Shown: positions 12,989 through 26,745, numbered from the stretch's first letter. The stretch is DNA of 40,918 nt from Minisyncoccota bacterium (GCA_021129655.1 JAJOLC010000048.1:1-40918), one strand, 5' to 3'. Notes: a model not told the origin generated them from the letters alone. Numbers and translations are program-made.

Positions 12989-13051
12989 TTTAAAATGTTT
13001 TAGAATTTAATAATTTGTGAATAGAAACTTTATCTATTCTTTAGAGCTCCC

Positions 13052-13088
13052 GTTAGGCTACATAGTCCCCAGGACTATGTAGCCTAAC
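13052..13088. repeat. Perfect 17-bp hairpin (3-nt loop) in the rplR-rpsE spacer, with no U-run
   Basis: GTTAGGCTACATAGTCC cca GGACTATGTAGCCTAAC. Confidence 0.85.
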
Positions 13089-13146
13089 AAAGTTCGTGCA
13101 ACAGTATTTTTAAAGCTAACGCTTCAAAAATTACTGGCACTCACTT

Positions 13147-14627: not shown

Positions 14628-14843
14628 AATATTTTGTTGTTAGTCTTCTTTGGATCCGTATCACCAAGATGTGGTGACGTGCTCCTGAATAAATCCGGCT
14701 CGCAAACTCTCGTCTTTCGACTCAAGCAAGCTCGCCTTCAACGACAGGTTGCCCTAAGTAGGCGCCTGTTGTCTTGCCTGCAAATATACCAGAATACCGT
14801 TAAATTGCAAGGATAAATCATTCTTCATCCGCACCATAACAAT

Positions 14844-14878
14844 AGAAAAGGCCGGCTCCTTCGGAGCCGGCCTTTTCT
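14844..14878 (-). terminator. Terminator directly after rplE, inside the spc cluster
   Basis: AGAAAAGGCCGGCTCC ttcg GAGCCGGCCTTTTCT. Confidence 0.8.
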
Positions 14879-14893
14879 ATAAACCACAGGGGT

Positions 14894-15445
14894 TTATTTC
14901 TTTGCTTCTTCAACTTTCTTCAACGGCATGCCTACGTGTCGCAATAGCGCTTCAGATTCTGCTTTGTCACTAGAACTCATCACAATAGTGATAGACATTC
15001 CAAATACATTACGCAGCTCTTCATCTGCAGTTTCAGGGAAAATTGTGTGTTCCTTGATACCCAGAGTGTAGTTACCCATCTCGTCGATTGAAGTAGTCTT
15101 CAGTCCACGAAAGTCTCGTGTTTGTGGGATAGCGATGTGAATCAATCTATCTAGAAATTGAGTCATTCGTTTTCCTCGTAGTGTGACCTGATAACCAACG
15201 ATATCACCTTCTCGTAGCTTAAAAGCTGCGATTGACTGTCGAGCCGCTCGAGGAGCTGCTTTTTGTCCAGTAATCTGCGCTAGTCTATCTTGGATAAGAG
15301 CAATCTTTGCCTTATCATCTACTCTACCGGTACCAACAGATACGATAACTTTTTCAATTGTTGGTGCTTCATTGACATTTTTGTATCCGAAGTCTCCTTT
15401 CAGAGCATCATATACGCTTGTCAGTCGAGCCTGTACTGTTTCCAT
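14894..15445 (-). CDS. rplE: 50S ribosomal protein L5
   Basis: 183 aa. NVNEAPTIEKVIVSVGTG..FRGL..DEMGNYTLGIKEHTIFPE. Confidence 0.95.
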   Translation of the reverse strand: METVQARLTSVYDALKGDFGYKNVNEAPTIEKVIVSVGTGRVDDKAKIALIQDRLAQITGQKAAPRAARQSIAAFKLREGDIVGYQVTLRGKRMTQFLDRLIHIAIPQTRDFRGLKTTSIDEMGNYTLGIKEHTIFPETADEELRNVFGMSITIVMSSSDKAESEALLRHVGMPLKKVEEAKK

Positions 15446-15589
15446 ACTCTATTTAATTAACTTAAAGAAATAATTGCTTTAGTGGAATTCGTGAAGCTTA
15501 GCCGGAGTGAGAAGAAATCGTAGCCTATCTACTACAACTAAGCACCCTAGTGCAGCGACAAAGAAATTCATCGAGCGATTACTTTCTGA

Positions 15590-15901
15590 CTAAATCTTCT
15601 TACCTGAAGGTCGCGCAACACGAACTTTCGTTCGCTTGTCTCCTTCACCCTCAAAAGCGTACCCAGCACGTACTGCTTTATCTCCTTCCATGAGTGACAC
15701 ATTTGAAACGTGAATCGGCATAGCCTTCTCAATAATTTGTCCTTGCGAACGACTTCGTCGATTTTTCTCATGACGTTTTACAACGTTCACATCTTCAATA
15801 ACTACCTGGTCAGTTTCTTTTAGAACAGTCAGGATTGAACCTGTCTTTCCTTTATCCTTACCAGCAATTACTTTTACTGTATCTCCTTTTCTGATTTTCA
15901 T
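15590..15901 (-). CDS. rplX: 50S ribosomal protein L24
   Basis: MKIRKGDTVKVIAGKDKGKTG.. (KOW motif). Confidence 0.95.
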   Translation of the reverse strand: MKIRKGDTVKVIAGKDKGKTGSILTVLKETDQVVIEDVNVVKRHEKNRRSRSQGQIIEKAMPIHVSNVSLMEGDKAVRAGYAFEGEGDKRTKVRVARPSGKKI

Positions 15902-15925
15902 ATTATTGTATTTACAACTTAGTTG

Positions 15926-16297
15926 TTACACGACTTCTGGAGCCAGTGACACAATTTTCTGATAACCAGCTTCGCTAAGTTCTCTGGGGATTGGACCAAA
16001 CACACGGTTTGCTCGCGGCTCACGCTTTTCCTTATCAACAAGCACTACTGCATTGTCATCAAAGCTTACGTATGAACCATCCTTTCGACGATAGGCTTTT
16101 CGCTGTCGCACTACGACACCATACACCACATCTTTTTTCTTAACTTGTTTTCTAGGCTCTGCAGACTGCACAGCTAGCACCACCATTTCTCCAAGTTCAG
16201 CGTAACGCTTCTTAGAACCACCCAGTACTTTGAAAACTCGACCCATCTTTCCTCCTGAGTTGTCAGTAATCTTTACGATTGTTTGTGTCTGAATCAT
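15926..16297 (-). CDS. rplN: 50S ribosomal protein L14
   Basis: MIQTQTIVKITDNSGGK...VFGPIPRE. Confidence 0.95.
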   Translation of the reverse strand: MIQTQTIVKITDNSGGKMGRVFKVLGGSKKRYAELGEMVVLAVQSAEPRKQVKKKDVVYGVVVRQRKAYRRKDGSYVSFDDNAVVLVDKEKREPRANRVFGPIPRELSEAGYQKIVSLAPEVV

Positions 16298-16298
16298 A

Positions 16299-16553
16299 TT
16301 ACTTTGTGGTTACAAGCTCAAATGACTTTCGCTTTGAGATTGGACGTACTTCTTTAATTTCGACCGTTTCACCGATTTTCGCAGTGTTTCCTGCATCATG
16401 TACCAAGAATTTCTTAGTTCGACGTAGGTACTTTTTGTACTTTGGGTGCTTCACGTATCGCTCAACAGCGACTGTAATAGTGTCGTTCATTTTTGATGAC
16501 ACCACTTTTCCGCGGAGCACGCGACCCTTGTTGGTTGTTGTTTCTGTACTCAT
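16299..16553 (-). CDS. rpsQ: 30S ribosomal protein S17
   Basis: [32 protein letters not shown]. Confidence 0.95.
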
Positions 16554-16556
16554 ACG

Positions 16557-16760
16557 CTATTTAGTTTCTTTATTACGTCGAGCTGTAAGCTCTGTAAGAG
16601 CGCGAGCAATTTCAGTTTTTGCGTTTCGGATAACACTAGCCTTTCGACTCATCTTATCTTTGAACCGCTCCTGACGTAATTCGTCGCGACTGGATTGGAC
16701 CAATTCGGTCAATTCAGAGTCTGACTTTTTTTGAATGTCTTGCATTTTTGTCATAGGCAA
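16557..16760 (-). CDS. rpmC: 50S ribosomal protein L29
   Basis: 67 aa, SDSELTELVQSSRDELRQERFK, positioned between rplP and rpsQ. Confidence 0.9.
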   Translation of the reverse strand: MPMTKMQDIQKKSDSELTELVQSSRDELRQERFKDKMSRKASVIRNAKTEIARALTELTARRNKETK

Positions 16761-16770
16761 TCAGGAAAAA

Positions 16771-17205
16771 TTACACGTGTGTGTCTTCACGACGCACGAA
16801 CTTAGTTTTTAATGGAAGCTTCGCAGTGGCCTTTCGAAGGGCTTCACGAGCTATATCTTCTGGTACACCATCGATTTCGAAAAGAATTCTTCCTGGTCGA
16901 ACTTCAAATACAAAGTGATCAGGATCTCCTTTACCTTTACCCATTGGCTGTTCAGCTCCTTTCTGTGTTACTGGTCGGTCAGGGAAAATTCGAATCCATG
17001 ACTTACCCGCCTTACCCATAGTACGAGAGATAACCCGTCGAGCTGCTTCAATTTGGTTTGAGCGTACTCGAGAAGCACTAGTAGCTTTTAATCCATATTC
17101 TCCGTATGCCACTGTGATACCACGAGTGTCTGGACGATTTAAACGAGCTTCACTCTTTCGGCTAGTTTGCCACTTTCGGTGTTTTACTTTTTTTGGAAAT
17201 AACAT
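16771..17205 (-). CDS. rplP: 50S ribosomal protein L16
   Basis: MLFPKKVKHRKWQ..QIEAARRVISR..IRIFPDRPVTQKG. Confidence 0.95.
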   Translation of the reverse strand: MLFPKKVKHRKWQTSRKSEARLNRPDTRGITVAYGEYGLKATSASRVRSNQIEAARRVISRTMGKAGKSWIRIFPDRPVTQKGAEQPMGKGKGDPDHFVFEVRPGRILFEIDGVPEDIAREALRKATAKLPLKTKFVRREDTHV

Positions 17206-17215
17206 ATGTAATTAC

Positions 17216-17917
17216 TTACCGGTTAGTCCGCGCTTCTGTATCTTTTTGCCCAGCCTTTCGGTCAGCGAATACTTCACCGCGATAAATCCAAACTTTGATA
17301 CCAATAGCACCATATGGAAGTCGGGCTGTGACACGAGCAAAGTCGATGTCAGCACGTAGGGTTTGTAGAGGAACTCGACCTTTTTTAAGCTCTTCCTTAC
17401 GAGCCATGTCAGCACCCCCTAGACGACCTGAAAGAGAAATTCGCACTCCTTCTACATCTCGGTTAGCCATCACCTTCTCTGCTGTTTGCTTCATCACACG
17501 ACGGAAAGTCATGCGTTTTTCAAGCCCCTCAGCAATCATTTGCCCAACGATTCGAGCACTTGATTCTGGTGAACGGATTTCTTCAATATCGATTTTTAGT
17601 TCTGGCTTGTCGGTAGTCTTCTGCTTTCGCAAAAACAAATCGATTTCTTTCTTTAATTTATTGATTCCTTCTCCGCTTCGGCCAATTACGATACCTGGGC
17701 GTGAAGTTTTAATGATGATACGAATATCCTTTTCGCTTCGTTCAATTTCTACTGCGTCAACTGACATTCCTTTTAGACGCGTATCTAGCATCTTTCGGAG
17801 TGCTGCATCAACTCGAAGATATTCTCGAAACTTCTTTGGGCTGGTAGTAAACCACCGGCTTCTCCAGTCTCGGTTTATTCCAATCCGTTGGATATATGGA
17901 TGAGCTACGTGTGTCAT
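17216..17917 (-). CDS. rpsC: 30S ribosomal protein S3
   Basis: 233 aa. HPYIQRIGINRDWRSRWF.., with KH and S3-C domains. Confidence 0.95.
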   Translation of the reverse strand: MTHVAHPYIQRIGINRDWRSRWFTTSPKKFREYLRVDAALRKMLDTRLKGMSVDAVEIERSEKDIRIIIKTSRPGIVIGRSGEGINKLKKEIDLFLRKQKTTDKPELKIDIEEIRSPESSARIVGQMIAEGLEKRMTFRRVMKQTAEKVMANRDVEGVRISLSGRLGGADMARKEELKKGRVPLQTLRADIDFARVTARLPYGAIGIKVWIYRGEVFADRKAGQKDTEARTNR

Positions 17918-17920
17918 ATC

Positions 17921-18250
17921 CTATTTTTTCTCGCCAAGTTCAACTAAGATATGGCTGTTACGTTTGTTAATTCGCGATGCAGAACCACGAGCTCGTGGCA
18001 TAGATCGTCTTAGAACGGTTCCTTTGTTGACAGCTACAGTCTTGATAAAGAGCTTATCGGCATCCTTTACTCCTTGGTCTTTTGCGTTAGCAACTGCCGA
18101 CTTAATCACTTTTGCAAATGGGTCAGACGCTCGTTTGTGTACAAACTGGATAGTAGTCAGGGCATCAGAAACGCTCTTACCTCGTACCAAGTCTGCGATT
18201 AAACGCACCTTTCGTGGGGACTGACGATAGTTTTTTAGAAATGCTTTCAT
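17921..18250 (-). CDS. rplV: 50S ribosomal protein L22
   Basis: YRQSPRKVRLIADLVRGKSVSDAL..L..F. Confidence 0.95.
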   Translation of the reverse strand: MKAFLKNYRQSPRKVRLIADLVRGKSVSDALTTIQFVHKRASDPFAKVIKSAVANAKDQGVKDADKLFIKTVAVNKGTVLRRSMPRARGSASRINKRNSHILVELGEKK

Positions 18251-18252
18251 AA

Positions 18253-18579
18253 TTATGCTGCTTTAGCTGCCTTTGCTGCTGTGATTTCAGCTTCCTTCTT
18301 CTTCTGTTCTAGCTCCTTCTGCATCTTACCTCCGTGTCGATGGAACTTCTTAGTTGGAGAAAATTCTCCAAGCTTGTGTCCCACCATTTCTTCTGCGACT
18401 AGAACATCAAGATGATCTCGTCCGTTATGGACACCAAAAGTGAAACCTACCATTTCTGGGGAAATCACGGAATTACGTGCCCAAGTCTTGATGACATCAC
18501 CCTCTCCGGCTTTCTTTCCGGCGATCTTTTTGAGGAGCTTTGCGTCTACGTATGGTCCTTTATAGAGTGATCGTGACAT
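18253..18579 (-). CDS. rpsS: 30S ribosomal protein S19 with Lys/Ala-rich C-terminal tail
   Basis: [35 protein letters not shown]. Tail: [21 protein letters not shown]. Confidence 0.95.
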
Positions 18580-18813
18580 ATTAATTTTTTACGTATAAAT
18601 CCGCACGTAACAGGTGCGGGGGTGAGAATCCCTATTAAAGACAGGTAACGGCCGGCCTTAGAAGAGATTCCCACTCGTTACTTCGGTTTGTACTTGCAAG
18701 CGAGCTGAGAGAAATGAACACAAGTATTCATTTCCAAGCGAGCGCAGCAAGCAAGTTTACTTACTTCAATATGTATCACTAGATAGGTAATACAAATTTG
18801 AGATTGGAACTGC

Positions 18814-19185
18814 ATGAGAATACCTAAAATAACCAGAAAAGTCAACAAAATATGCTATGCTCGACGAATGCCGAAACAACGTGGAAAAGAACACACCACC
18901 CTGACCGAAACTGCCAAATTAGTAGTGAAGGAGATTAAGCGTATTCCGGGGATAAAAATGGTCGCTCCTGGCCAAATTAACGTTACTAAAGGCAGTAACG
19001 CTGGAAAACGCTTCGTTACCGTGGTCTACACTCGAGCCGGTTGTGAGCTGATAATTTCAGGCCAAAGCACCCAAAAAGTAGCTGTGCATATGTCTAATAC
19101 TAAAGATATTATACCGGCTCTGAAAAAAGCTAAATCCTTACGCGAATTCACCTTTAAAGAGAGGGAGCGGAAGCCTGGGATATAA
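18814..19185 (+). CDS. Hypothetical basic 123-aa protein
   Basis: The only plus-strand ORF inside the S10 cluster. It ends at the convergent terminator 19185-19221. The segment GKEHTTLTETAKLVVKEIKRIPGIKMVAPGQI...GCELIISGQSTQKVAVH faintly recalls DUF2103-type proteins, from memory only and unverified. Confidence 0.45.
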   Translation: MRIPKITRKVNKICYARRMPKQRGKEHTTLTETAKLVVKEIKRIPGIKMVAPGQINVTKGSNAGKRFVTVVYTRAGCELIISGQSTQKVAVHMSNTKDIIPALKKAKSLREFTFKERERKPGI

Positions 19186-19221
19186 GAAAAGGCCGGAAAG
19201 CTTTGCTTTCCGGCCTTTTCT
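19185..19221. terminator. Bidirectional terminator between the convergent 123-aa ORF and the acidic protein gene
   Basis: AGAAAAGGCCGGAAAGC ttt GCTTTCCGGCCTTTTCT. Confidence 0.8.
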
Positions 19222-19229
19222 TATACTTT

Positions 19230-20699
19230 CTACAGTTCGTCCATCGCGTCATCAATTGCATCTTCTGCATCCTCTACGTATTCTTCTACATCATCCCAAT
19301 CCTCATCATCGAAGGCATCTTCTGCTTTCTCTAAAAACTCTTCTGCTTCTTCCAGAATCTCTTCGGCGTCCCTGGTGCTATCGCCGTCCTCTTCAGCCTC
19401 TTCTACCTCGTCCCAAGCATCATCCAGCTCGTCCTTCAGGTCATCAATCATTTCTTCGGCATCATCTTCTTCATCTGAACCACCTACTGAATCTAACGCA
19501 TCGTCAATTTCATCTTCTGCCTTCTCTGCAAAATCCAAAGCAGCTTGCCAATCCTCATCATCTTGGGCTGATTCTGCTCGTTTTATATTTCGCTCAGCAT
19601 CGTCAAGCAAATCTTCAGCATCATCCACATCCTCTCCGTCCTCATCTGCTTCGTCAATTTCATCTTCTGCTTCTTCATAAGCATCCTTTGCGTCTTCTAC
19701 CGCATCATTAGCATCTCGTTCAGTCACAATCTCAATTTCATCACGAGCGTCTTCAAGTGATTCTTCTGCATCAAGAGCATCGCTGACGGCCTGTCGATAT
19801 ACGCCGTCGTCAAATGACTCCTCTGCATCCTCCATTAAACGCTCAGCCTTCTTTAGTAGACCCGGAGCATCATTAACATCAATATCGTTATCTTCTGCTT
19901 CTTCAATCAAATCATCAATATCTTCTAACAAGTCCTGGACGTCGTCCAACAAGTCTTCAGCCTCACTCTTTTCAGATTCTCCGCCAGCATCTTCTAGCAC
20001 ATCGGTTGCTTCATCAAGCACCTCATCAGCCAATTTTTCTGCCTCTTCGTAATCACCGTCGAAGTAAAGCATCATAGCGTCAAACAAGTCCTCGACAATA
20101 CCGCGCAAATCATCTTCCATCTCATCAATATCTTCTTCATCATCACCGTCTTCACGGGCATCATCTATCTGATCTTCAGCACCGGTAATCATTTGCATTG
20201 CATCTTCAATAGCATCACCTGCATCTACCCTGTCCTCAGCATCTACATCAATTGATGCTCCTGCCACCTGCGGCTGTGGAACTGGTGAGAGTATTGCAAC
20301 TGGTGCTTGAGCCACTTGTTCAGCTTTCTTGGCCTCTAAACTAGCCAACAAATCAAGCAGATATGCCGCTTGTGATTTAGGACCAAATATTCCACTGGTT
20401 GGAGAAACGCCTTTTGCTTCTTGCCATTTAATTACTCCGGCCTCAGTCAAACTGCCGAATTTATTTGTTTCATTACCAGGTGAACCAGGACCCTCAGTAG
20501 CTAACTGAAAACCAGTAGCATTAAGATACTTCTGCAGGCAGCGGACGTTCTCATTAATTACCCCCATTTCTAGAGTGCCAGAGAAAGAACACTCATTTGC
20601 AGACTGTGCTTGTGATACTGAAGGAAAAACAAAAACTATTGCCAGAATAGCAGCTGCAACGATAAATAATGACGAACGTGAAAAGACTGAGGCTTTCAT
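19230..20699 (-). CDS. Secreted peptidoglycan-binding-domain protein with a ~340-aa hyper-acidic helical-repeat tail
   Basis: Signal peptide (..FVFPSVSQAQS). PG_binding_1-like segment (CLQKYLNATGF...FGSLTEAGVIKWQEAKGVSPTSGIFGPKSQAAYL). The tail is ~47% Asp+Glu by hand count. An F/A-D-D-x-D-W/Y motif recurs four times about 84 residues apart. Confidence 0.75.
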   Translation of the reverse strand: MKASVFSRSSLFIVAAAILAIVFVFPSVSQAQSANECSFSGTLEMGVINENVRCLQKYLNATGFQLATEGPGSPGNETNKFGSLTEAGVIKWQEAKGVSPTSGIFGPKSQAAYLLDLLASLEAKKAEQVAQAPVAILSPVPQPQVAGASIDVDAEDRVDAGDAIEDAMQMITGAEDQIDDAREDGDDEEDIDEMEDDLRGIVEDLFDAMMLYFDGDYEEAEKLADEVLDEATDVLEDAGGESEKSEAEDLLDDVQDLLEDIDDLIEEAEDNDIDVNDAPGLLKKAERLMEDAEESFDDGVYRQAVSDALDAEESLEDARDEIEIVTERDANDAVEDAKDAYEEAEDEIDEADEDGEDVDDAEDLLDDAERNIKRAESAQDDEDWQAALDFAEKAEDEIDDALDSVGGSDEEDDAEEMIDDLKDELDDAWDEVEEAEEDGDSTRDAEEILEEAEEFLEKAEDAFDDEDWDDVEEYVEDAEDAIDDAMDEL

Positions 20700-20731
20700 A
20701 AATAAAAGTAAATTACTGAATAGTTGTGACT

Positions 20732-20740
20732 ATTGTACCA
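20732..20740 (-). promoter_or_regulatory. Extended -10 TGGTACAAT, putative promoter of the acidic PG-binding protein gene
   Basis: Lies between the rplB terminator and the ATG at 20699. Confidence 0.4.
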
Positions 20741-20842
20741 TTTTAGCTTAAACATAAGAGTATGCTTATTTACCAACTTAACAGTGGTTATATTCTTATG
20801 ACTAAGTATCGGTCACAGCTTAAGTCTTTCAGGTATGAGATA

Positions 20843-20881
20843 AAAATAAAAGCCTCGGGCATTGCCCGAGGCTTTTATTTT
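20843..20881 (-). terminator. Terminator directly after rplB
   Basis: AAAATAAAAGCCTCGGGC att GCCCGAGGCTTTTATTTT. Confidence 0.8.
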
Positions 20882-20884
20882 TAT

Positions 20885-21745
20885 CTACCGTTTTCCGCCC
20901 ATGATTCGTCCTGGCTTTCGCCGAGAGATAATGAGTTTATTTGAGTACTTCTTTGGTGAACGAGTCTTCTGACCCTTTCCGGTTGGTCGCCCCTGCTTGG
21001 TTCGCTGGCGACGGTGTCCCCGTGGAGATTTACCTTCACCACCTCCATGTGGGTGATCAACTGCGTTCTTTGCTGCACCACGAGTCTTCGGTCGAAGTCC
21101 CATGTGTCGTGCTCGTCCCGCCTTTCCAATGCTTACCAAACGGTTTTCATCGTTTGATACAACACCGATAGAAGCCCAAGCTGTGTTCATTACCTTACGT
21201 ATTTCCGAAGATGGCATTTTCAATGAAGTGTATTTTGCATCCTGCGCAACAACTTCAACTGAGCTTCCGGCAGAACGTGCGATACGTGAACCTGCTCCAG
21301 GATTTATTTCTACATTGTAGACAGTTGTCCCGACTGGAATTGCTGCTAATGGTAGTCTGTTTCCAGACTGAATTTTTGCTGTTTCAGAAACGATGATTTG
21401 GTCACCCTTCTTCATGTCTTCTGTAGCAATAATGTAGCGTCGCTCACCATCTGCGTAACAGATGAGGGCTACGAAACCAGTTCGGTTCGGGTCGTACTCG
21501 ATAGTTTCTACTGTAGCTGGCACATCCTTCTTGTCGTACTTGAAGTCGACCAGTCGGTATGTTCGCTTATTTCCACCACCACGATAGTGAGTAGTGATTC
21601 GTCCATCACTGTTTCGTCCACCAGTACTTCGCTTACCCTTTGTAAGTGATTTTAGGGGATTACTTTGAGTAGTGGTTAGTTTTTTCCTGTATTCAATGAC
21701 TGACCCATCACGTCGTCCAGGAGATGTTGGTTTGTACTTTTTCAT
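20885..21745 (-). CDS. rplB: 50S ribosomal protein L2
   Basis: 286 aa. GRNSDGRITTHYRGGG.KR.YR.VDF, GGGEGKSPRG. Confidence 0.95.
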   Translation of the reverse strand: MKKYKPTSPGRRDGSVIEYRKKLTTTQSNPLKSLTKGKRSTGGRNSDGRITTHYRGGGNKRTYRLVDFKYDKKDVPATVETIEYDPNRTGFVALICYADGERRYIIATEDMKKGDQIIVSETAKIQSGNRLPLAAIPVGTTVYNVEINPGAGSRIARSAGSSVEVVAQDAKYTSLKMPSSEIRKVMNTAWASIGVVSNDENRLVSIGKAGRARHMGLRPKTRGAAKNAVDHPHGGGEGKSPRGHRRQRTKQGRPTGKGQKTRSPKKYSNKLIISRRKPGRIMGGKR

Positions 21746-21747
21746 AT

Positions 21748-22119
21748 CTAGACAATGTTAATGGTGTCACCCTTTTTAAGATACACGTAGGCTTTTTTCA
21801 TACCCGGAACTTGCTTCATTCGGTTCCGACTACCAACCAAGCGCTTCGCTGGTTTTTTGTTGACGATGTTGATTTTCACCGGCGTCACATTATAGAGCGC
21901 CTTGATAGCATCTCGCACATCGTATTTGTTAGCAGTCCGCTTCACCACGAAGGTGTATACATTTTGCTCACTCATGCCCACTGTCTTTTCAGTGATTCGA
22001 GGTCGTACGATTACAGACGAGAGGTCCCAATCAGTTGATGCGGCTTTCGACACATCTACTTTTGGAGCTTCGACAGCACTCTCTTTTTTGGTTTCTTTCT
22101 TTTTTCCAAAGAGAGCCAT
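21748..22119 (-). CDS. rplW: 50S ribosomal protein L23 with N-terminal extension
   Basis: VIVRPRITEKTVGMSEQNVYTFVVKRTANKYDVRDAIKALYNV. Confidence 0.9.
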   Translation of the reverse strand: MALFGKKKETKKESAVEAPKVDVSKAASTDWDLSSVIVRPRITEKTVGMSEQNVYTFVVKRTANKYDVRDAIKALYNVTPVKINIVNKKPAKRLVGSRNRMKQVPGMKKAYVYLKKGDTINIV

Positions 22120-22121
22120 AA

Positions 22122-22805
22122 TTATTTAGACTTAGGTGTTGCAGGGACGATCCGCTTCTCCAAAACCTCAACTGAAGCTGGTGCATCTGCCACTACAACG
22201 TACTTATAAGTTAGAAGATCAACAGGGTTGATGTCCTTAGCTTGCGCTACTTCTATATTTCCGAAATTTCGGAAACTCTTTTCCACTGCCAGATTTCGTT
22301 CTGACAACACTAGTAGTGCTGCATTTTTTCGCTTTGTTGCTAGAGACTCTTGACCAGTACCTTTTGCAAGGGCTGTCAAAATTTCTTTGGCGGTCTTTGT
22401 CTTTGCCTCATCCATTGCTAGAGAGTCAACAAACAAAACTTCGTTATCTACTAGCTTCTTAGAAAGAACGCTAGCAAGTGCCTTAGCACGAACCTTCTTG
22501 TTTATCTTTACTGAGAAGTCTTTTTCCGAACGTGGTCCGAAAGTTACACCTCCACCAGTCCAGATTGGAGACCGTCGAGAACCGTGTCGCGCACGACCTG
22601 TTCCCTTCTGCTTCCAAGGCTTTCGTCCACCTCCGCGAACTTCACTTCGGTCTTTTGTGTGGGCTGTACCAGCTCGCGCATTCGCTTGCATTCCAACTAC
22701 CACCTCGTGAACCAGGTCGGGATTCCACGAAACAGAAAATACTGCTTCTGGAAGTGTTACATCACCAGTCTCCTTTCCTTCACGAGAATATACTTTTGCA
22801 TTCAT
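22122..22805 (-). CDS. rplD: 50S ribosomal protein L4
   Basis: RSEVRGGGRKPWKQKGTGRARHGSRRSPIWTGGGVTFGP. Confidence 0.95.
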   Translation of the reverse strand: MNAKVYSREGKETGDVTLPEAVFSVSWNPDLVHEVVVGMQANARAGTAHTKDRSEVRGGGRKPWKQKGTGRARHGSRRSPIWTGGGVTFGPRSEKDFSVKINKKVRAKALASVLSKKLVDNEVLFVDSLAMDEAKTKTAKEILTALAKGTGQESLATKRKNAALLVLSERNLAVEKSFRNFGNIEVAQAKDINPVDLLTYKYVVVADAPASVEVLEKRIVPATPKSK

Positions 22806-22816
22806 ATGATTGAAAA

Positions 22817-23440
22817 TTAATTAGTGCTATACACTTCTACTAATGTGCCCTTTCGACCTGGTACTGCTCCTGATACTACGATGATATTTTCATCGGTGTT
22901 TACTTGTAGAACCTTTAGACCTTTCACAGTCACCGTGTCGCTACCCATACGACCACCCATACGTGTCCCTTTCAGAACGTGCCCGATACCGGTCGCACCG
23001 ATTGATCCTGGTTCTCGTTCAGAGTGCTTCTGACCGTGACTTCGACGACCTCCGGCGAAACCGTGTCGCTTCACCACACCCTGAAACCCCTTACCTTTTG
23101 AAATAGCCGAAACTGTGATGTCATCACCTGCTTCAAAGGCAGAAGCGTCTAAGGTAGAACCTTTTTCTACTCCTTCAATCCTTGACTCTTCTCCAGCTCG
23201 TGGACGAAATTCTCGTGCATTTGCTACAGCAGAACCAAAGTGTCCTTTTACTGCCTTGCTAACTCGGTGCTCCTTTTGTTCACCTGATGCCAGCTGGACC
23301 GCTACGTAACCATCAGTCTCAGAAGTTTTCACTTGCGAAATTTTCGCAGGCTCCACTTTGAGGACGGTTGCTGCACGACACACCCCTTCATTGTCGAAGA
23401 CTTGTGTCATACCGGTCTTTGTTCCCAGAATAAATTTCAT
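22817..23440 (-). CDS. rplC: 50S ribosomal protein L3
   Basis: MKFILGTKTGMTQVFDNEG...SKGKGFQGVVKRHGFAGG. Confidence 0.95.
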   Translation of the reverse strand: MKFILGTKTGMTQVFDNEGVCRAATVLKVEPAKISQVKTSETDGYVAVQLASGEQKEHRVSKAVKGHFGSAVANAREFRPRAGEESRIEGVEKGSTLDASAFEAGDDITVSAISKGKGFQGVVKRHGFAGGRRSHGQKHSEREPGSIGATGIGHVLKGTRMGGRMGSDTVTVKGLKVLQVNTDENIIVVSGAVPGRKGTLVEVYSTN

Positions 23441-23484
23441 TCTTGTATGAACCTAATTAATAAAGCGCTTTAATAACATAAAAT

Positions 23485-23650
23485 GTCAGAAGGTGTTTGT
23501 AAAAATTTGAGATACAAAAGTGCTGAAAATCTAGCAAGAAATAATTTTGTAGATTTAAACTGTATTCTTATACAGAGAGAATCTACAAAATAATTTATTA
23601 AAAATTTTGAGTGCTGACTATCCAAATTTTTTCAAATAACTTCTCTAGAC
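23485..23650. repeat. ~165-nt AT-rich nested imperfect palindrome upstream of rplC
   Basis: Outer arms 23485-23509 / 23623-23650. Middle arms AAATAATTTTGTAGATT (23539-23555) / AATCTACAAAATAATTT (23580-23596). Inner stem CTGTAT/ATACAG. Confidence 0.7.
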
Positions 23651-23657
23651 CCATACA

Positions 23658-23713
23658 ACAAATCGCGCCGTTTACTGGCGAGCACAAGCTCGCCGATAAA
23701 CGGCGCGATTTGT
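23658..23713. repeat. GC-rich ~25-bp hairpin with ACAA loop and no U-run
   Basis: ACAAATCGCGCCGTTTA-CTGGCGAGC acaa GCTCGCCGA-TAAACGGCGCGATTTGT. Confidence 0.8.
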
Positions 23714-23812
23714 GCCCATTGGTCCGGAAACTAGTTCCGTACATAGGTCTTTAAAGCTGGGGTTAGTATACGGATTTATCTATAAAACACAAGTCTATTT
23801 TTATCTTTTTGC

Positions 23813-23840
23813 TTGCAATCAAATAAATACTGAGTATAGT
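23813..23840 (+). promoter_or_regulatory. Putative promoter of the 82-aa orphan ORF
   Basis: TTGCAA, 16 nt, TATAGT. Confidence 0.4.
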
Positions 23841-23874
23841 CGTAATTAGAAAAGAAATTTATGAGGAGAATCGT

Positions 23875-24123
23875 ATGAGAAAACTTACAGCTGTAGTAAT
23901 TGCACTTATGGAGATGCCATCGAAAAGGATACCTTCATTACCTCTGAACATCGTGATTACTGATTTGAATATGGATATTGAAAGAATAATCAAAAATTGG
24001 AGAGGCGAAGAAGAGAAGTCAAAAACTAATCAAAGGATGCAGATTAGAACATATGAAGCTAATCAGCGGCACACATTAAGGAAAGTTCATTTAAGAAGAC
24101 AAAATGTCTCACGCGGACATTAA
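23875..24123 (+). CDS. Orphan 82-aa basic ORF with its own promoter and strong SD
   Basis: TTGCAA-16 nt-TATAGT at 23813-23840. GAGGAG lies 6 nt before the ATG. I recognise no family, so the coding status is uncertain. Confidence 0.35.
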   Translation: MRKLTAVVIALMEMPSKRIPSLPLNIVITDLNMDIERIIKNWRGEEEKSKTNQRMQIRTYEANQRHTLRKVHLRRQNVSRGH

Positions 24124-24231
24124 GTAAAATTTGCAGCCCACTGCAAGCTATTTCTCCCCTAGGGAGGGGTCGAAATATCTTAAGTGTCTGCATATTTTCG
24201 CAATAGCTCCTGAGTGGAGCTTTATTCAAAC

Positions 24232-24270
24232 AAAAAAGACCCTGTTTATTTAAACTGGGTCCTTATTTTA
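24232..24270. terminator. Bidirectional terminator between the two orphan small ORFs
   Basis: AAAAAAGACCC..GGGTC, with a U-run on the minus strand. Confidence 0.55.
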
Positions 24271-24287
24271 ATACTATTTTGTATCTC

Positions 24288-24413
24288 TTACCCTACGATT
24301 GCGGGTGCAATTTGCATGTAAGCTAATACGCCAATTGTGGCCAAACTGAGACACTGAACCATCCAGCTATTCTCTGTTTGAAACGTTATATTATTTGGTT
24401 CTAAGTTTTCCAT
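24288..24413 (-). CDS. Possible 41-aa hydrophobic peptide
   Basis: Hand translation: MENLEPNNITFQTENSWMVQCLSLATIGVLAYMQIAPAIVG, TAA stop, followed by terminator 24232-24270. No SD. Below the ORF-track length cutoff. Confidence 0.2.
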   Translation of the reverse strand: MENLEPNNITFQTENSWMVQCLSLATIGVLAYMQIAPAIVG

Positions 24414-24534
24414 AAAACTTTATATTAAAGAACAATTTTTAAAGAACAATTTCTAGGCTTCTCTTCTGATCTCTTCAGATTACTACTAAAGTCTACTTAG
24501 TGACACTTTACTTCTCTTCAAAGCTTGGCGTCTT

Positions 24535-24578
24535 ACAACAGAGAAAGGCGAGCCCTATGCGGGCTCGCCTCCTGTTGT
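24535..24578. repeat. Two-tier hairpin (7 bp + 9 bp) sharing the GGCGAGC/GCTCGCC core with 23658-23713
   Basis: ACAACAG agaaa GGCGAGCCC tatgc GGGCTCGCC tc CTGTTGT. Confidence 0.75.
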
Positions 24579-24637
24579 TCTTATATAGTATATTCTAGCG
24601 GGAATACCGCAACACTGTAATGTGGATAACTACAGAT

Positions 24638-24668
24638 AACAAAAAACACCCGGTGGGTGTTTTTTGTT
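24638..24668. terminator. Strong bidirectional terminator ~170 nt downstream of rpsJ
   Basis: AACAAAAAACACCC ggt GGGTGTTTTTTGTT. Confidence 0.8.
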
Positions 24669-24835
24669 TTAGCATCAGATTGCCAGCTGTACGGAGCGCG
24701 ACAACACTCTGTAAAGAATGATACTGAGCTCCGCTAGCTCAGCGCTACTACTGAGCAATACGAGAGAAATAAAAGTGGCGTTAGTCCTTTTTATTTCCGA
24801 GTGAGCGCTGGTAGAAAGACAAGCTTCAGCTTGGC

Positions 24836-25183
24836 TTACATCATCTTCACATCGATGTTCACTCCAGATGGGAGTGAGAGGTTCGTTAGAGCCTCTACCA
24901 CTTTTGGACTCGGATTGAGAATGTCGATTACTCGTTTGTGAGTACGCATTTCAAACTGTTCTCGCGCGTCCTTGTGCACGAATGTTGACCGGTTAACCGT
25001 GTACTTCTTAATTTCTGTTGGAAGAGGAATCGGTCCAACTACTTCTGCGTCGAAACGCATAGCGGTATCGATAATCTGCTTCACAGATGCATCAAGAATT
25101 TTGTGCTCGTAGGCACGAACTCGGATACGGAGCTTGTTGATTGCTCCTGCTTTGTCTTTAGTTGATGTAGTTTCTGTGGCCAT
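24836..25183 (-). CDS. rpsJ: 30S ribosomal protein S10 (short N-terminal extension)
   Basis: [39 protein letters not shown]. Confidence 0.95.
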
Positions 25184-25209
25184 AATTAGATGTCTTAGTT
25201 AGACATTGC

Positions 25210-26400
25210 TTACGCAACAATCTTTGTTACAACACCAGCTCCTACAGTCTTTCCTCCTTCACGAATAGCGAAGTTTGTTTGCTCTTCCATAGCCACTGGA
25301 GCTACCAACTTCACTTTGAAAGTTGCAGTATCTCCTGGCATAACCATTTCAGTTCCATCAGCTAGAGTTACGTCTCCTGTTACGTCAGTAGTTCGTACGT
25401 AGAACTGAGGCTTGTAACCTGAGAAGAATGGAGTATGTCGTCCCCCTTCATCCTTTGATAGTACGTAAACCTCAGCTTCGAACTCAGTGTGTGGAGTTAC
25501 AGAACCCTTCGCAGCAAGTACTTGACCTCGGTGTACGTCTTCTTTCTTTGTACCTCGCAGAAGAATACCAGCATTGTCTCCAGCCTGAGCCTGATCCAAT
25601 TGCTTGTTGAACATTTCTACTCCAGTAACTGTTGTTAGTGTTGTATCAGAGATACCAACAATTTCAACTTCTTCACCTACTTTTACGATTCCTCGTTCCA
25701 CTCGACCAGTCACTACTGTTCCTCGCCCTTCAATTGAGAAAATGTCCTCAATAGGCATTAGGAATGGCTTGTCTAGGTCTCGTTCTGGTGTTGGGAAGTA
25801 TGCATCCATCGCATCAGCAAGCTCAATAATCTTCGCCTGGTAGTCAGCATCTCCCTCAAGCGCCTTAAGAGCAGAACCCTTGATGATTGGTGCGTTTTCA
25901 CCATCATACCCGGCTGCTGTTAGCATTTCTCGAAGTTCTTCTTCTACTAGTTCAATCATTTCTGCATCGTCAACCATGTCACACTTGTTTAGGAAAACAA
26001 GCATTTGCGGTACACCAACTTGCTTGGCAAGAAGAATGTGCTCACGCGTTTGTGGCATAGCTCCGTCTGTTGCAGCAACAACTAGAACAGCACCGTCCAT
26101 TTGAGCGGCACCTGTAATCATGTTCTTGATGTAGTCGGCGTGACCTGGCGCATCGATGTGTGCGTAGTGTCGAGTTGGAGTTTCGTACTCAGAGTGCGAA
26201 AGCGAAATAGTAATTCCACGAGCTTTTTCTTCAGGAGCCTTATCAATTTCTCCTACGTCTTTTACGTTTGCTGTGTATCCTTCCCCTTTAGCTTTAAGAG
26301 TAGTAAGAATAGCTGCAGTCAAAGTAGTCTTACCGTGGTCAACGTGACCAATGGTTCCTACATTGATGTGCGGCTTTGTTCGGTCATATGCTTCAGCCAT
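25210..26400 (-). CDS. tuf: Elongation factor Tu
   Basis: 396 aa. [22 protein letters not shown]. Confidence 0.98.
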
Positions 26401-26632
26401 AATAATACTTAAATTAGTATAAATAATAATTACCGCACACAGCTTGCTTTAGAAAAAGCTTTGGTCTAAGCGTACAATCGAAACGGCGCGAGAACGCCGC
26501 GCTTCGGTTGTAAACCTAGCGTGTGAAAGAGCAGTATATTTTCGCTCCACCCACAGAGTACCTGTGTGCAGTGGAGCTATACTATCAGAACCGCCTTGTT
26601 TTGCAAGCCTAATGTCTCGGGTTTTTACAAAA

Positions 26633-26662
26633 TAAACCCTCAGTCTTATGACTGAGGGTTTA
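26633..26662 (-). terminator. Terminator after the 171-aa ORF
   Basis: TAAACCCTCAGT cttatg ACTGAGGGTTTA. Confidence 0.75.
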
Positions 26663-26745
26663 ATAAGATGAATCATTTTCGTAAACACATCAATACAATT
26701 TAGCCACAAAGAATCTACTGTAATAATCAAGAATTATCTCAACAA

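Follow-up and report, generated by a model that had tools for sequence, protein, structure and literature searches.

Clade-wide division of the S10-spc ribosomal-protein cluster in Paceibacteria and a candidate regulatory leader RNA ahead of rpsS

In a 40,918-nucleotide (nt) contig of a Minisyncoccota bacterium (GCA_021129655.1, JAJOLC010000048.1:1-40918; the whole stretch is called the window below), the S10-type ribosomal-protein cluster is interrupted by 2305 nt between rplB and rpsS, and the same interruption is found throughout the related genomes in which both genes can be seen. The sequence directly ahead of rpsS comprises a predicted promoter and a conserved leader of about 230 nt, the core structure of which is backed by compensatory base changes. 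What stands out in the window is a ribosomal-protein cluster that appears to have been modularised throughout a clade, along with candidate regulatory RNAs for which Rfam has no match. Few gene arrangements in prokaryotes are as conserved as the S10-spc cluster, which also forms the backbone of the 16-protein marker sets by which uncultured lineages are placed. A first-pass annotation of the window had recognised the interruption, and all the elements that it named are present within about 5 nt of where it had placed them. Its reading of the interruption as a self-contained insert of two genes, discrete and restricted to this genome, is not sustained, because the break occurs in 39 of 39 relatives that show both genes and the two genes are convergent units with different histories.

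Genes of the cluster lie on the minus strand in the order tuf, rpsJ, rplC, rplD, rplW, rplB, rpsS, rplV, rpsC, rplP, rpmC, rpsQ, rplN, rplX, rplE, rpsN and onward. Between rplB and rpsS follow, in order of transcription, a predicted terminator, an extended -10 element, a gene for a protein of 489 amino acids (aa), a predicted bidirectional terminator, a DUF2103-like open reading frame (ORF) on the plus strand, and a structured spacer:

20885-21745, minus strand: rplB (ribosomal protein L2; Pfam Ribosomal_L2_N/C, E 2e-32 and 1e-43), last gene of the rplC-rplD-rplW-rplB unit.
20838-20886, minus strand: intrinsic-terminator-like perfect palindrome after rplB, with 24+24-nt arms, 100% complementary, beginning inside the rplB stop codon.
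20732-20740, minus strand: extended -10 element TGGTACAAT of the 489-aa gene, 32 nt upstream of its ATG at 20699.
19230-20699, minus strand: gene for a predicted secreted acidic protein of 489 aa (Pfam PG_binding_1 and DUF4398), variable cargo.
19181-19225, both strands: predicted bidirectional terminator common to the two convergent genes, with 21+21-nt arms, 100% complementary.
18868-19185, plus strand: gene for a DUF2103-like small basic protein of 105 aa, isoelectric point (pI) 10.45 (Pfam DUF2103, PF09876, 27.2 bits).
18253-18579, minus strand: rpsS (S19; Pfam Ribosomal_S19, E 1e-32), first gene of the unit rpsS-rplV-rpsC-rplP-rpmC-rpsQ-rplN-rplX-rplE.

The extent of the break was assessed by searching the L2 protein against one genome per species of the Genome Taxonomy Database (GTDB). 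The 80 closest loci, from metagenome-assembled genomes of Paceibacteria/Parcubacteria type with L2 identities of 68-86%, form the set of relatives considered here (numbered with the prefix L). All 39 loci showing both genes have an rplB-rpsS gap, of 263-5653 nt; in 11 further loci there is no rpsS within 6 kb of rplB, and the canonical adjacency was seen in none of the 80 loci scanned. The split relatives include CP060229.1 (L014), by its title a whole chromosome, and the break is also present in 33 metagenome loci in which L2 is visible.

To our knowledge, adjacency of rplB and rpsS is near-universal in bacteria, and strong palindromes bracket the interval in the window. Both points would speak for a recent private insertion, such as a horizontal islet or a mobile element, or else for a chimeric assembly. 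The clade-wide break contradicts this, as does a second assembly (ENA ERZ23487779, scaffold_658, 20.4 kb), which has both junctions identical to those of the window and differs from window positions 14923-26699 by five mismatches in 11,777 nt. Moreover, the borders of the interval carry no flanking direct or terminal inverted repeats, scans with Pfam, NCBIfam and PADLOC revealed no integrase or transposase domain, and the GC content of the interval (0.43-0.46) is the same as that of its flanks, with no compositional shift. A search of the window for tRNA and tmRNA genes found none. The clade-wide break and the second assembly effectively refute a private insertion or chimera, to which we assign a negligible probability.

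The contents of the gap differ widely between relatives. Clustering of 303 ORFs from the gaps of the 80 loci yielded one widespread family, the DUF2103-like one, and 204 singletons. The shortest gaps, of 263 nt (L057), 290 nt (L072) and 414 nt (L054), consist of terminator, promoter and leader only. Since one family is widespread and the rest is variable, the gap between the rplB terminator and the rpsS promoter appears to behave as an insulated slot, with contents that turn over and one long-term resident. The two genes found there in the window are independent convergent units with different histories. A trio of genes on the ribosomal strand, encoding a sigma70- or extracytoplasmic function (ECF)-like factor of about 200 aa and two proteins of about 255 and 340 aa with hydrophobic segments, recurs in the gaps of 5-7 loci (L021, L023, L027, L028, L044 and others).

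Both palindromes of the interval have the sequence features of intrinsic (Rho-independent) terminators, and are predicted to act as such. The one after rplB, with the GC core GCCUCGGGC-AAU-GCCCGAGGC followed by the U-tract UUUUAUUUUU, folds with a free energy (dG) of -35.9 kcal/mol (z -12.2 relative to shuffled sequences). Of 79 related loci, 45 have a comparable hairpin with a T-run no more than 150 nt beyond rplB, compared to 0 of 320 coding control segments. The palindrome at 19181-19225 is predicted to fold about equally well on either strand, with dG -35.1 (minus) and -34.0 (plus) and z about -11.

The 489-aa protein features a signal-peptide-like N-terminus, a PG_binding_1 domain (PF01471, residues 50-108; 31.9 bits, cut-off 23), a Pro-rich linker, and a helical region of about 340 aa made of D/E-rich degenerate repeats, with a C-terminal match to DUF4398 (32.4 bits, cut-off 27.9). 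Its pI is 4.05, and D and E make up 46.8% of residues 150-489. At the DNA level the acidic two-thirds of the gene (19230-20280) is built of degenerate in-frame repeats that fall into families of 24-87 nt and are spaced by multiples of 3; its sequence and length differ from one relative to another (320-508 aa). Homologues were found in 11 of the 80 genome loci, the closest ones only, on the ribosomal strand and directly after rplB, and the gene is a recent cargo of the closest relatives. An extended -10 element of the form TGnTAyAmT is kept about 24-44 nt upstream of the ATG in 19 of 19 distinct homologue loci, with 14 matching TGnTAnnWT exactly. On this account the peptidoglycan-binding gene is predicted to be a self-contained unit between two terminators. 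At the level of sequence, the transcriptional independence that had been claimed for the interposed genes is thereby borne out, given the conserved -10 element and terminators on both sides.

The second gene had been annotated as a plus-strand ORF of 123 aa. This ORF exists (18814-19185) but is over-extended: its first 54 nt overlap the rpsS promoter. The real start is almost certainly the methionine at codon 19 (M19, position 18868), because the resulting 105 aa agree with the usual length of the homologues and with the NCBI annotation of the same contig. Homologue lengths are 103-108 aa in nearly all of the 120 best of 206 found, and mean column identity is 70%. The family has no conserved Cys or His cluster, with only H9 and H74 invariant. 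The gene occurs in the rplB-rpsS gap of 40 of the 80 loci by tblastn (36 by ORF clustering), always antisense to the ribosomal genes; it is likewise antisense within the gap in all metagenome loci that show it, and in 3 of 3 look-ups centred on homologues. Judging by these comparisons, it appears to be a long-standing resident of the gap, near ribosomal proteins in its degree of conservation.

Assignment of this protein to DUF2103 is marginal (27.2 bits for a cut-off of 22.4; relatives score 20-28 bits). Profile comparison with the PDB gave no relative, Foldseek found no match below E 0.07 for its AlphaFold2 model (predicted local distance difference test score, pLDDT, 80), and there was no NCBIfam match and no meaningful PADLOC match. 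Like Pfam DUF2103 proteins in general, the 105-aa protein passes the family cut-off, and ordinary DUF2103 proteins appear in the weak tail of its profile search. It differs from them in being a narrow, conserved Paceibacteria branch (23 representatives at E<=1e-10 among 1.84 billion) that is fixed in the ribosomal cluster. DUF2103 is described as a 'predicted metal-binding protein', and the one paper found to mention it ties distant relatives to type III CRISPR-Cas and toxin contexts (PMC12065111), which are absent at this locus.

The region between the DUF2103-like gene and rpsS had been described as a structured divergent spacer of 235 nt. It is indeed structured (dG -69.6 kcal/mol, z -5.1), and measures 234 nt, or 288 nt with the corrected start of the DUF2103-like gene. 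Rather than a mere spacer, it is predicted to hold the rpsS promoter and a conserved cis-regulatory leader RNA of about 230 nt:

18817-18845, minus strand: predicted rpsS promoter, with -35 TTGACT (18840-18845), a 17-nt spacer and -10 TATTCT (18817-18822), from a promoter scan and conservation.
18800-18810, minus strand: conserved box GUUCCAAUCUC at or near the transcript 5' end; GTTCC..A..CTC follows the -10 element in 33/40 loci.
18766-18801, minus strand: leader hairpin H1, stem GUAUUAC/GUGAUAC, loop CUAUCUA, from the minimum-free-energy (MFE) fold.
18691-18753, minus strand: leader hairpin H2, a long lineage-variable stem-loop from the MFE fold, absent or different in relatives.
18622-18674, minus strand: leader hairpin H3, forming the conserved core; its irregular stem of 19 bp carries the cap GG-CCGUUA-CC, with the invariant loop CCGUUA at 18646-18651.
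18591-18619, minus strand: leader hairpin H4, CCGCAC-cuguuac-GUGCGG (18601-18619), with the U-rich tail AUUUAUACGU, from the fold; the tail ends 11 nt before the ATG.

The putative promoter has the hexamers, the 16-18 nt spacing and the conserved position expected of a sigma70-type promoter. A TTGACN-N16-18-TAnhAT motif is found at -73 to -354 from the rpsS ATG in 28 of 40 related loci, and the closest relatives share TTGACTTTT...GTATTCT almost base for base. In the window the -10 hexamer is followed by GTTCCAATCTC, and the transcription start site (TSS), placed from spacing only, would lie at about 18810.

Covariation supports the structure of H3 and H4. RNAalifold applied to 24 H3 sequences gave compensatory changes at 13 of 15 pairs. 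In a first alignment (A1) with an 18-pair H3 structure, 86.8% of cells are paired, compared to about 55% with slid partners, and 14 of the 18 pairs have changed on both sides. For H3 and H4 together, an alignment of 47 distinct sequences (A5) shows 96.8% of cells paired, against at most 61% with slid partners, and 16 of 22 pairs changed on both sides, including all 4 core pairs of H4. In neither alignment did any of 500 shuffles reach the observed value. Furthermore, 56 of 87 distinct sequences have a GC hairpin with a U-rich tail beginning 3-6 nt beyond H3, compared to 59 of 1740 shuffled ones (3.4%). Equivalents of H1 in relatives have the loop CUAUCUA(G/A) or CUGGYAG on different stems. In some relatives (L003, L007, L014, L019, L021, L037, L066, L094) an extra conserved module lies between H3-H4 and the rpsS ATG, made up of a long hairpin with AUAGUCGUUACACUCCUU behind it as a second element containing CGUUAC, near the start codon. 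The idea of a strand swap between the 5' box and H3 was dropped, as the 5-6 nt shared with the 5' strand of H3 in the window, L016 and L006 were not seen, by eye, in L043.

The leader is also specific to its position. A covariance model (CM) derived from the H3 alignment was searched over the window and the 80 loci (844 kb in all) and gave at most one strong plus-strand hit per locus, in 26 loci and the window (18610-18686, 73.3 bits). All the strong hits either precede rpsS or sit at a locus end where rpsS would be expected, and hits outside the training set were strong in L031, L040 and L067 and weak in L012 and L027. Reverse-strand scores are 3-4-fold lower and G-U pairs are frequent, which argues for an RNA on the sense strand of rpsS. 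In a blind test, metagenome contigs were scanned with the 20-base pattern AAGGNNGGCCGTTACCTNTCTTT and no condition on context; 90 stretches matched, of which 80 became loci. In 74 of these rpsS follows on the same strand 53-294 nt downstream, the other 6 end too soon, and none shows another context. Anatomy, conservation, covariation, strand and exclusive linkage to rpsS are thus features of the leader that can be read directly from the comparisons. Two of them are expected of a cis-regulatory element: the leader would form the sense-strand 5' untranslated region of a ribosomal-protein operon, and its core structure is backed by compensatory changes.

Searches of Rfam (release 15) yielded no match at gathering score in the window, and none at E<=10 in the rpsS or rplC leaders (18400-25400); the only sub-threshold hits in 18400-25400 were terminator-bearing families on the two palindromes. 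Literature searches for ribosomal leaders or S10-operon splits in Patescibacteria, also known as the candidate phyla radiation (CPR), returned nothing relevant, and a published list of 20 ribosomal leader candidates does not include an rpsS leader (Eckert & Weinberg 2020, PMC7247131).

A promoter followed by a structured RNA and a terminator-like hairpin is also the anatomy of a short transcript, so that H3-H4 might represent a small-molecule riboswitch, or a stand-alone small RNA gene ending at H4 and located upstream of rpsS by chance. This is most improbable. The distance from H4 to the ATG is only 11-25 nt in many loci and leaves no room for another promoter, so that rpsS would have to be expressed by read-through of H4. 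The exclusive linkage to rpsS (74/74) argues for a function in cis, and a single irregular hairpin with a 6-nt loop offers no obvious ligand pocket and matches no riboswitch family in Rfam.

We consider it likely, with some reserve, that the cluster has been split across the lineage into separate transcription units, and that the rpsS unit is subject to autogenous ribosomal-protein feedback through its leader. An old re-organisation of the S10-spc cluster in a Paceibacteria clade of the Patescibacteria would have led to the modules tuf-rpsJ, rplC-rplD-rplW-rplB, rpsS...rplE and rpsN..., each separately terminated and separately promoted. The rplB terminator would end one unit, the genes of the slot would be expressed on their own, and rpsS would be transcribed from its own sigma70-type promoter through the leader of about 230 nt, which would act as feedback sensor. 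A ribosomal protein of the rpsS unit, when in excess over rRNA, may bind H3 and so lower expression of the unit; by the heuristic of the closest gene, uS19 would be the candidate ligand. The favoured route is enhanced termination at H4, since the layout of a hairpin next to a weak terminator parallels that of the Escherichia coli S10 leader. Alternatively, initiation might be blocked at the nearby start codon. No Shine-Dalgarno (SD) motif was found at any of the 19 gene starts checked in the window, and A/U-rich sequence precedes the start codons, which suggests SD-independent initiation in this organism and makes classical SD sequestration unlikely. Promoter and terminator activity, ligand and mode of repression are what we infer in this scheme.

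Several observations weigh against this reading. The promoters, terminators and TSS are deduced from sequence and conservation only, and more distant relatives have, in TAcTAT, a stronger -10 hexamer than the TATTCT of the window. As a terminator H4 is weak, with 6 bp and an interrupted U-tract, and about a third of sequences fail to show it under strict criteria. Attenuation at H4 cannot account for every case, because a further 170-350 nt separate H4 from the ATG in some relatives. The class-A hairpin is absent from about 15 of the 39 loci, which carry differently built leaders that share only (A/C)CCGUUA(C/A). In addition, ribosomal-protein leaders commonly, though not universally, resemble the rRNA site bound by their ligand, but when the conserved motifs were compared with E. 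coli 16S, 23S and 5S rRNA (the only rRNA compared), the best matches did not exceed chance, since 23-29% of shuffled motifs matched equally well. Among these matches, on which we do not rely, GGCCGUUACC is antisense to 16S 259-268 with 1 mismatch, CCCUGGUAG resembles 16S 795, and CCCUGGCAG resembles 23S 31. As 33 of 39 loci have CCGTTA[AC] in the 400 nt ahead of rpsS despite the differing leaders (our own estimate of chance is about 0.05 per locus), the CCGUUA element looks like their common determinant.

It is also conceivable that terminators in the cluster are leaky, that transcripts are mainly long read-through products, and that the leader serves RNA processing or stability, for example as an RNase site or a protective 5' stem-loop. 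Ribosomal-protein stoichiometry favours co-transcription, model bacteria are known to process long ribosomal-protein transcripts internally, and H4 is weak as a terminator. Read-through transcripts would nonetheless collide with the antisense gene and the bidirectional terminator (dG -35 kcal/mol) in the gap. Moreover, a near-consensus promoter directly precedes the leader in 28 of 40 loci, and 11 loci lack rpsS in the 6 kb next to rplB. We regard a mainly processing role as improbable.

It is tempting to speculate that the CCGUUA hairpin is instead the operator of a dedicated regulator, the DUF2103-like protein, acting on the RNA or on overlapping divergent promoters. This protein is basic, strongly conserved and lineage-restricted, and is encoded by the only conserved resident of the gap, always in antisense orientation. 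In the window and its closest relatives, 20-26 nt separate the start codon of the gene from the -35 element of rpsS, a classic layout of regulator and target in which the two promoters would have to overlap back to back; the 22 nt observed in the window make the protein a serious alternative ligand. Against this, class-A leaders are no less present in loci without the gene in their gap (L043, L054, L072-L074, L078, L081, L082), other genes intervene between it and the rpsS promoter in many loci, and the protein has no recognisable nucleic-acid-binding fold. We therefore rate regulation by this protein as unlikely, if still worth keeping in mind next to autogenous feedback. There is a similarly small chance that the split goes beyond a passive cut, and that the 105-aa protein is either a ribosome-associated factor specific to the lineage or a partner acting in trans on the CCGUUA hairpin, in a dedicated new control circuit for ribosomal-protein synthesis in these reduced-genome bacteria. 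If so, such a circuit, together with the rplC leader described below and a possible third leader ahead of rpsN, would replace classical L4/S8 feedback.

Comparable breaks exist elsewhere in the cluster, with the following elements in the window:

23647-23770, minus strand: predicted rplC promoter (-10 TATACT, 23765-23770) and second structured leader (core 23647-23758), with invariant GACCAAUGGGCAC at 23712-23724.
14783-14878, minus strand: predicted rplE terminator (14844-14878) and promoter TTGCAA-16-TGgTATATT ahead of rpsN (14783-14810), marking the end of the rpsS unit.

The distance between rpsJ and rplC is 1395 nt in the window (23441-24835) and 219-4169 nt in relatives. The -10 element ahead of rplC is conserved as GTATACT, and the leader is found in 72 of the 78 sequences in which rplC is visible (77 loci and the window), with 15 of 27 predicted pairs showing compensatory changes. 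In the window, an A/T-rich segment of about 165 nt that is absent from close relatives splits this leader from the conserved 40 nt or so before the rplC ATG. The rpsJ-rplC gap also has two ORFs, one of 41 aa with a hydrophobic stretch and one of 82 aa on the plus strand (23875-24123) without Pfam match, as well as terminator-like hairpins at about 24640-24665 and 24544-24572.

At the third break, the gap from L5 to S14 is 137-3240 nt in 25 of 25 related loci; L24 and L5 are usually less than 30 nt apart. The putative rpsN promoter consists of TTGCAA (14805-14810) and the extended -10 element TGgTATATT (14783-14791), and the rplE-rpsN gap (14628-14893) includes a structured spacer of about 150 nt before the rpsN GTG. 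The view of the first-pass annotation that rpsS-rplE has become a separate transcription unit fits the sequence evidence, with a conserved promoter and leader at one end and a strong predicted terminator after rplE at the other. Taken together, the clade appears to cut the S10-spc cluster at three fixed points, S10|L3, L2|S19 and L5|S14. Two further spacers were noted in the window. The one between rplX and rplE (144 nt, 15446-15589) is peculiar to this genome and a few relatives, the junction being at most 42 nt in 57 of 63 related loci; the other (158 nt, 12989-13146), between putative rplR and rpsE as named by gene order only, contains two long near-perfect hairpins, one with a 17-bp stem.

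These findings suggest that CPR bacteria allow the S10-spc arrangement more plasticity than it is commonly credited with, and that binning and marker pipelines expecting contiguous genes should permit multi-kilobase gaps in this lineage. They provide candidate rpsS and rplC leaders in a phylum for which neither Rfam release 15 nor the literature searched describes a ribosomal-protein leader, as well as a conserved small basic protein with a fixed place in the ribosomal-protein cluster. With the two leaders, the homeostasis of ribosomal proteins becomes directly testable in these organisms.

The leader of the E. coli S10 operon mediates control by L4, which promotes termination (attenuation) and also represses translation. 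The rpsS leader resembles it in being a structured 5' leader in which a hairpin of protein-binding type adjoins a terminator-like hairpin, some tens of nt before the first start codon. It differs in its location ahead of rpsS, which is in mid-operon in E. coli, in its unrelated sequence and structure, and in belonging to a lineage without Shine-Dalgarno sequences; protein binding and attenuation are, in this case, predictions. Also comparable is the L2-Alphaproteobacteria candidate, with rplB, rpsS, rplV and rpsC as regulated genes (Eckert & Weinberg 2020, PMC7247131, Table 1). It too is a lineage-specific leader in an S10-type cluster, recognised by comparative genomics and covariation, that points to internal regulation near rplB/rpsS. 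That leader, however, lies upstream of rplB and in another phylum, whereas here the two genes are separated by kilobases of cargo. For the rplC leader of the window, the nearest analogue is the L4-Archaeoglobi candidate upstream of rplC-rplD-rplW-rplB (PMC7247131), which stands ahead of the same four genes. The latter is archaeal and its model does not match the window, and the Paceibacteria motif is a larger, multi-stem structure characterised by the invariant GACCAAUGGGCAC.

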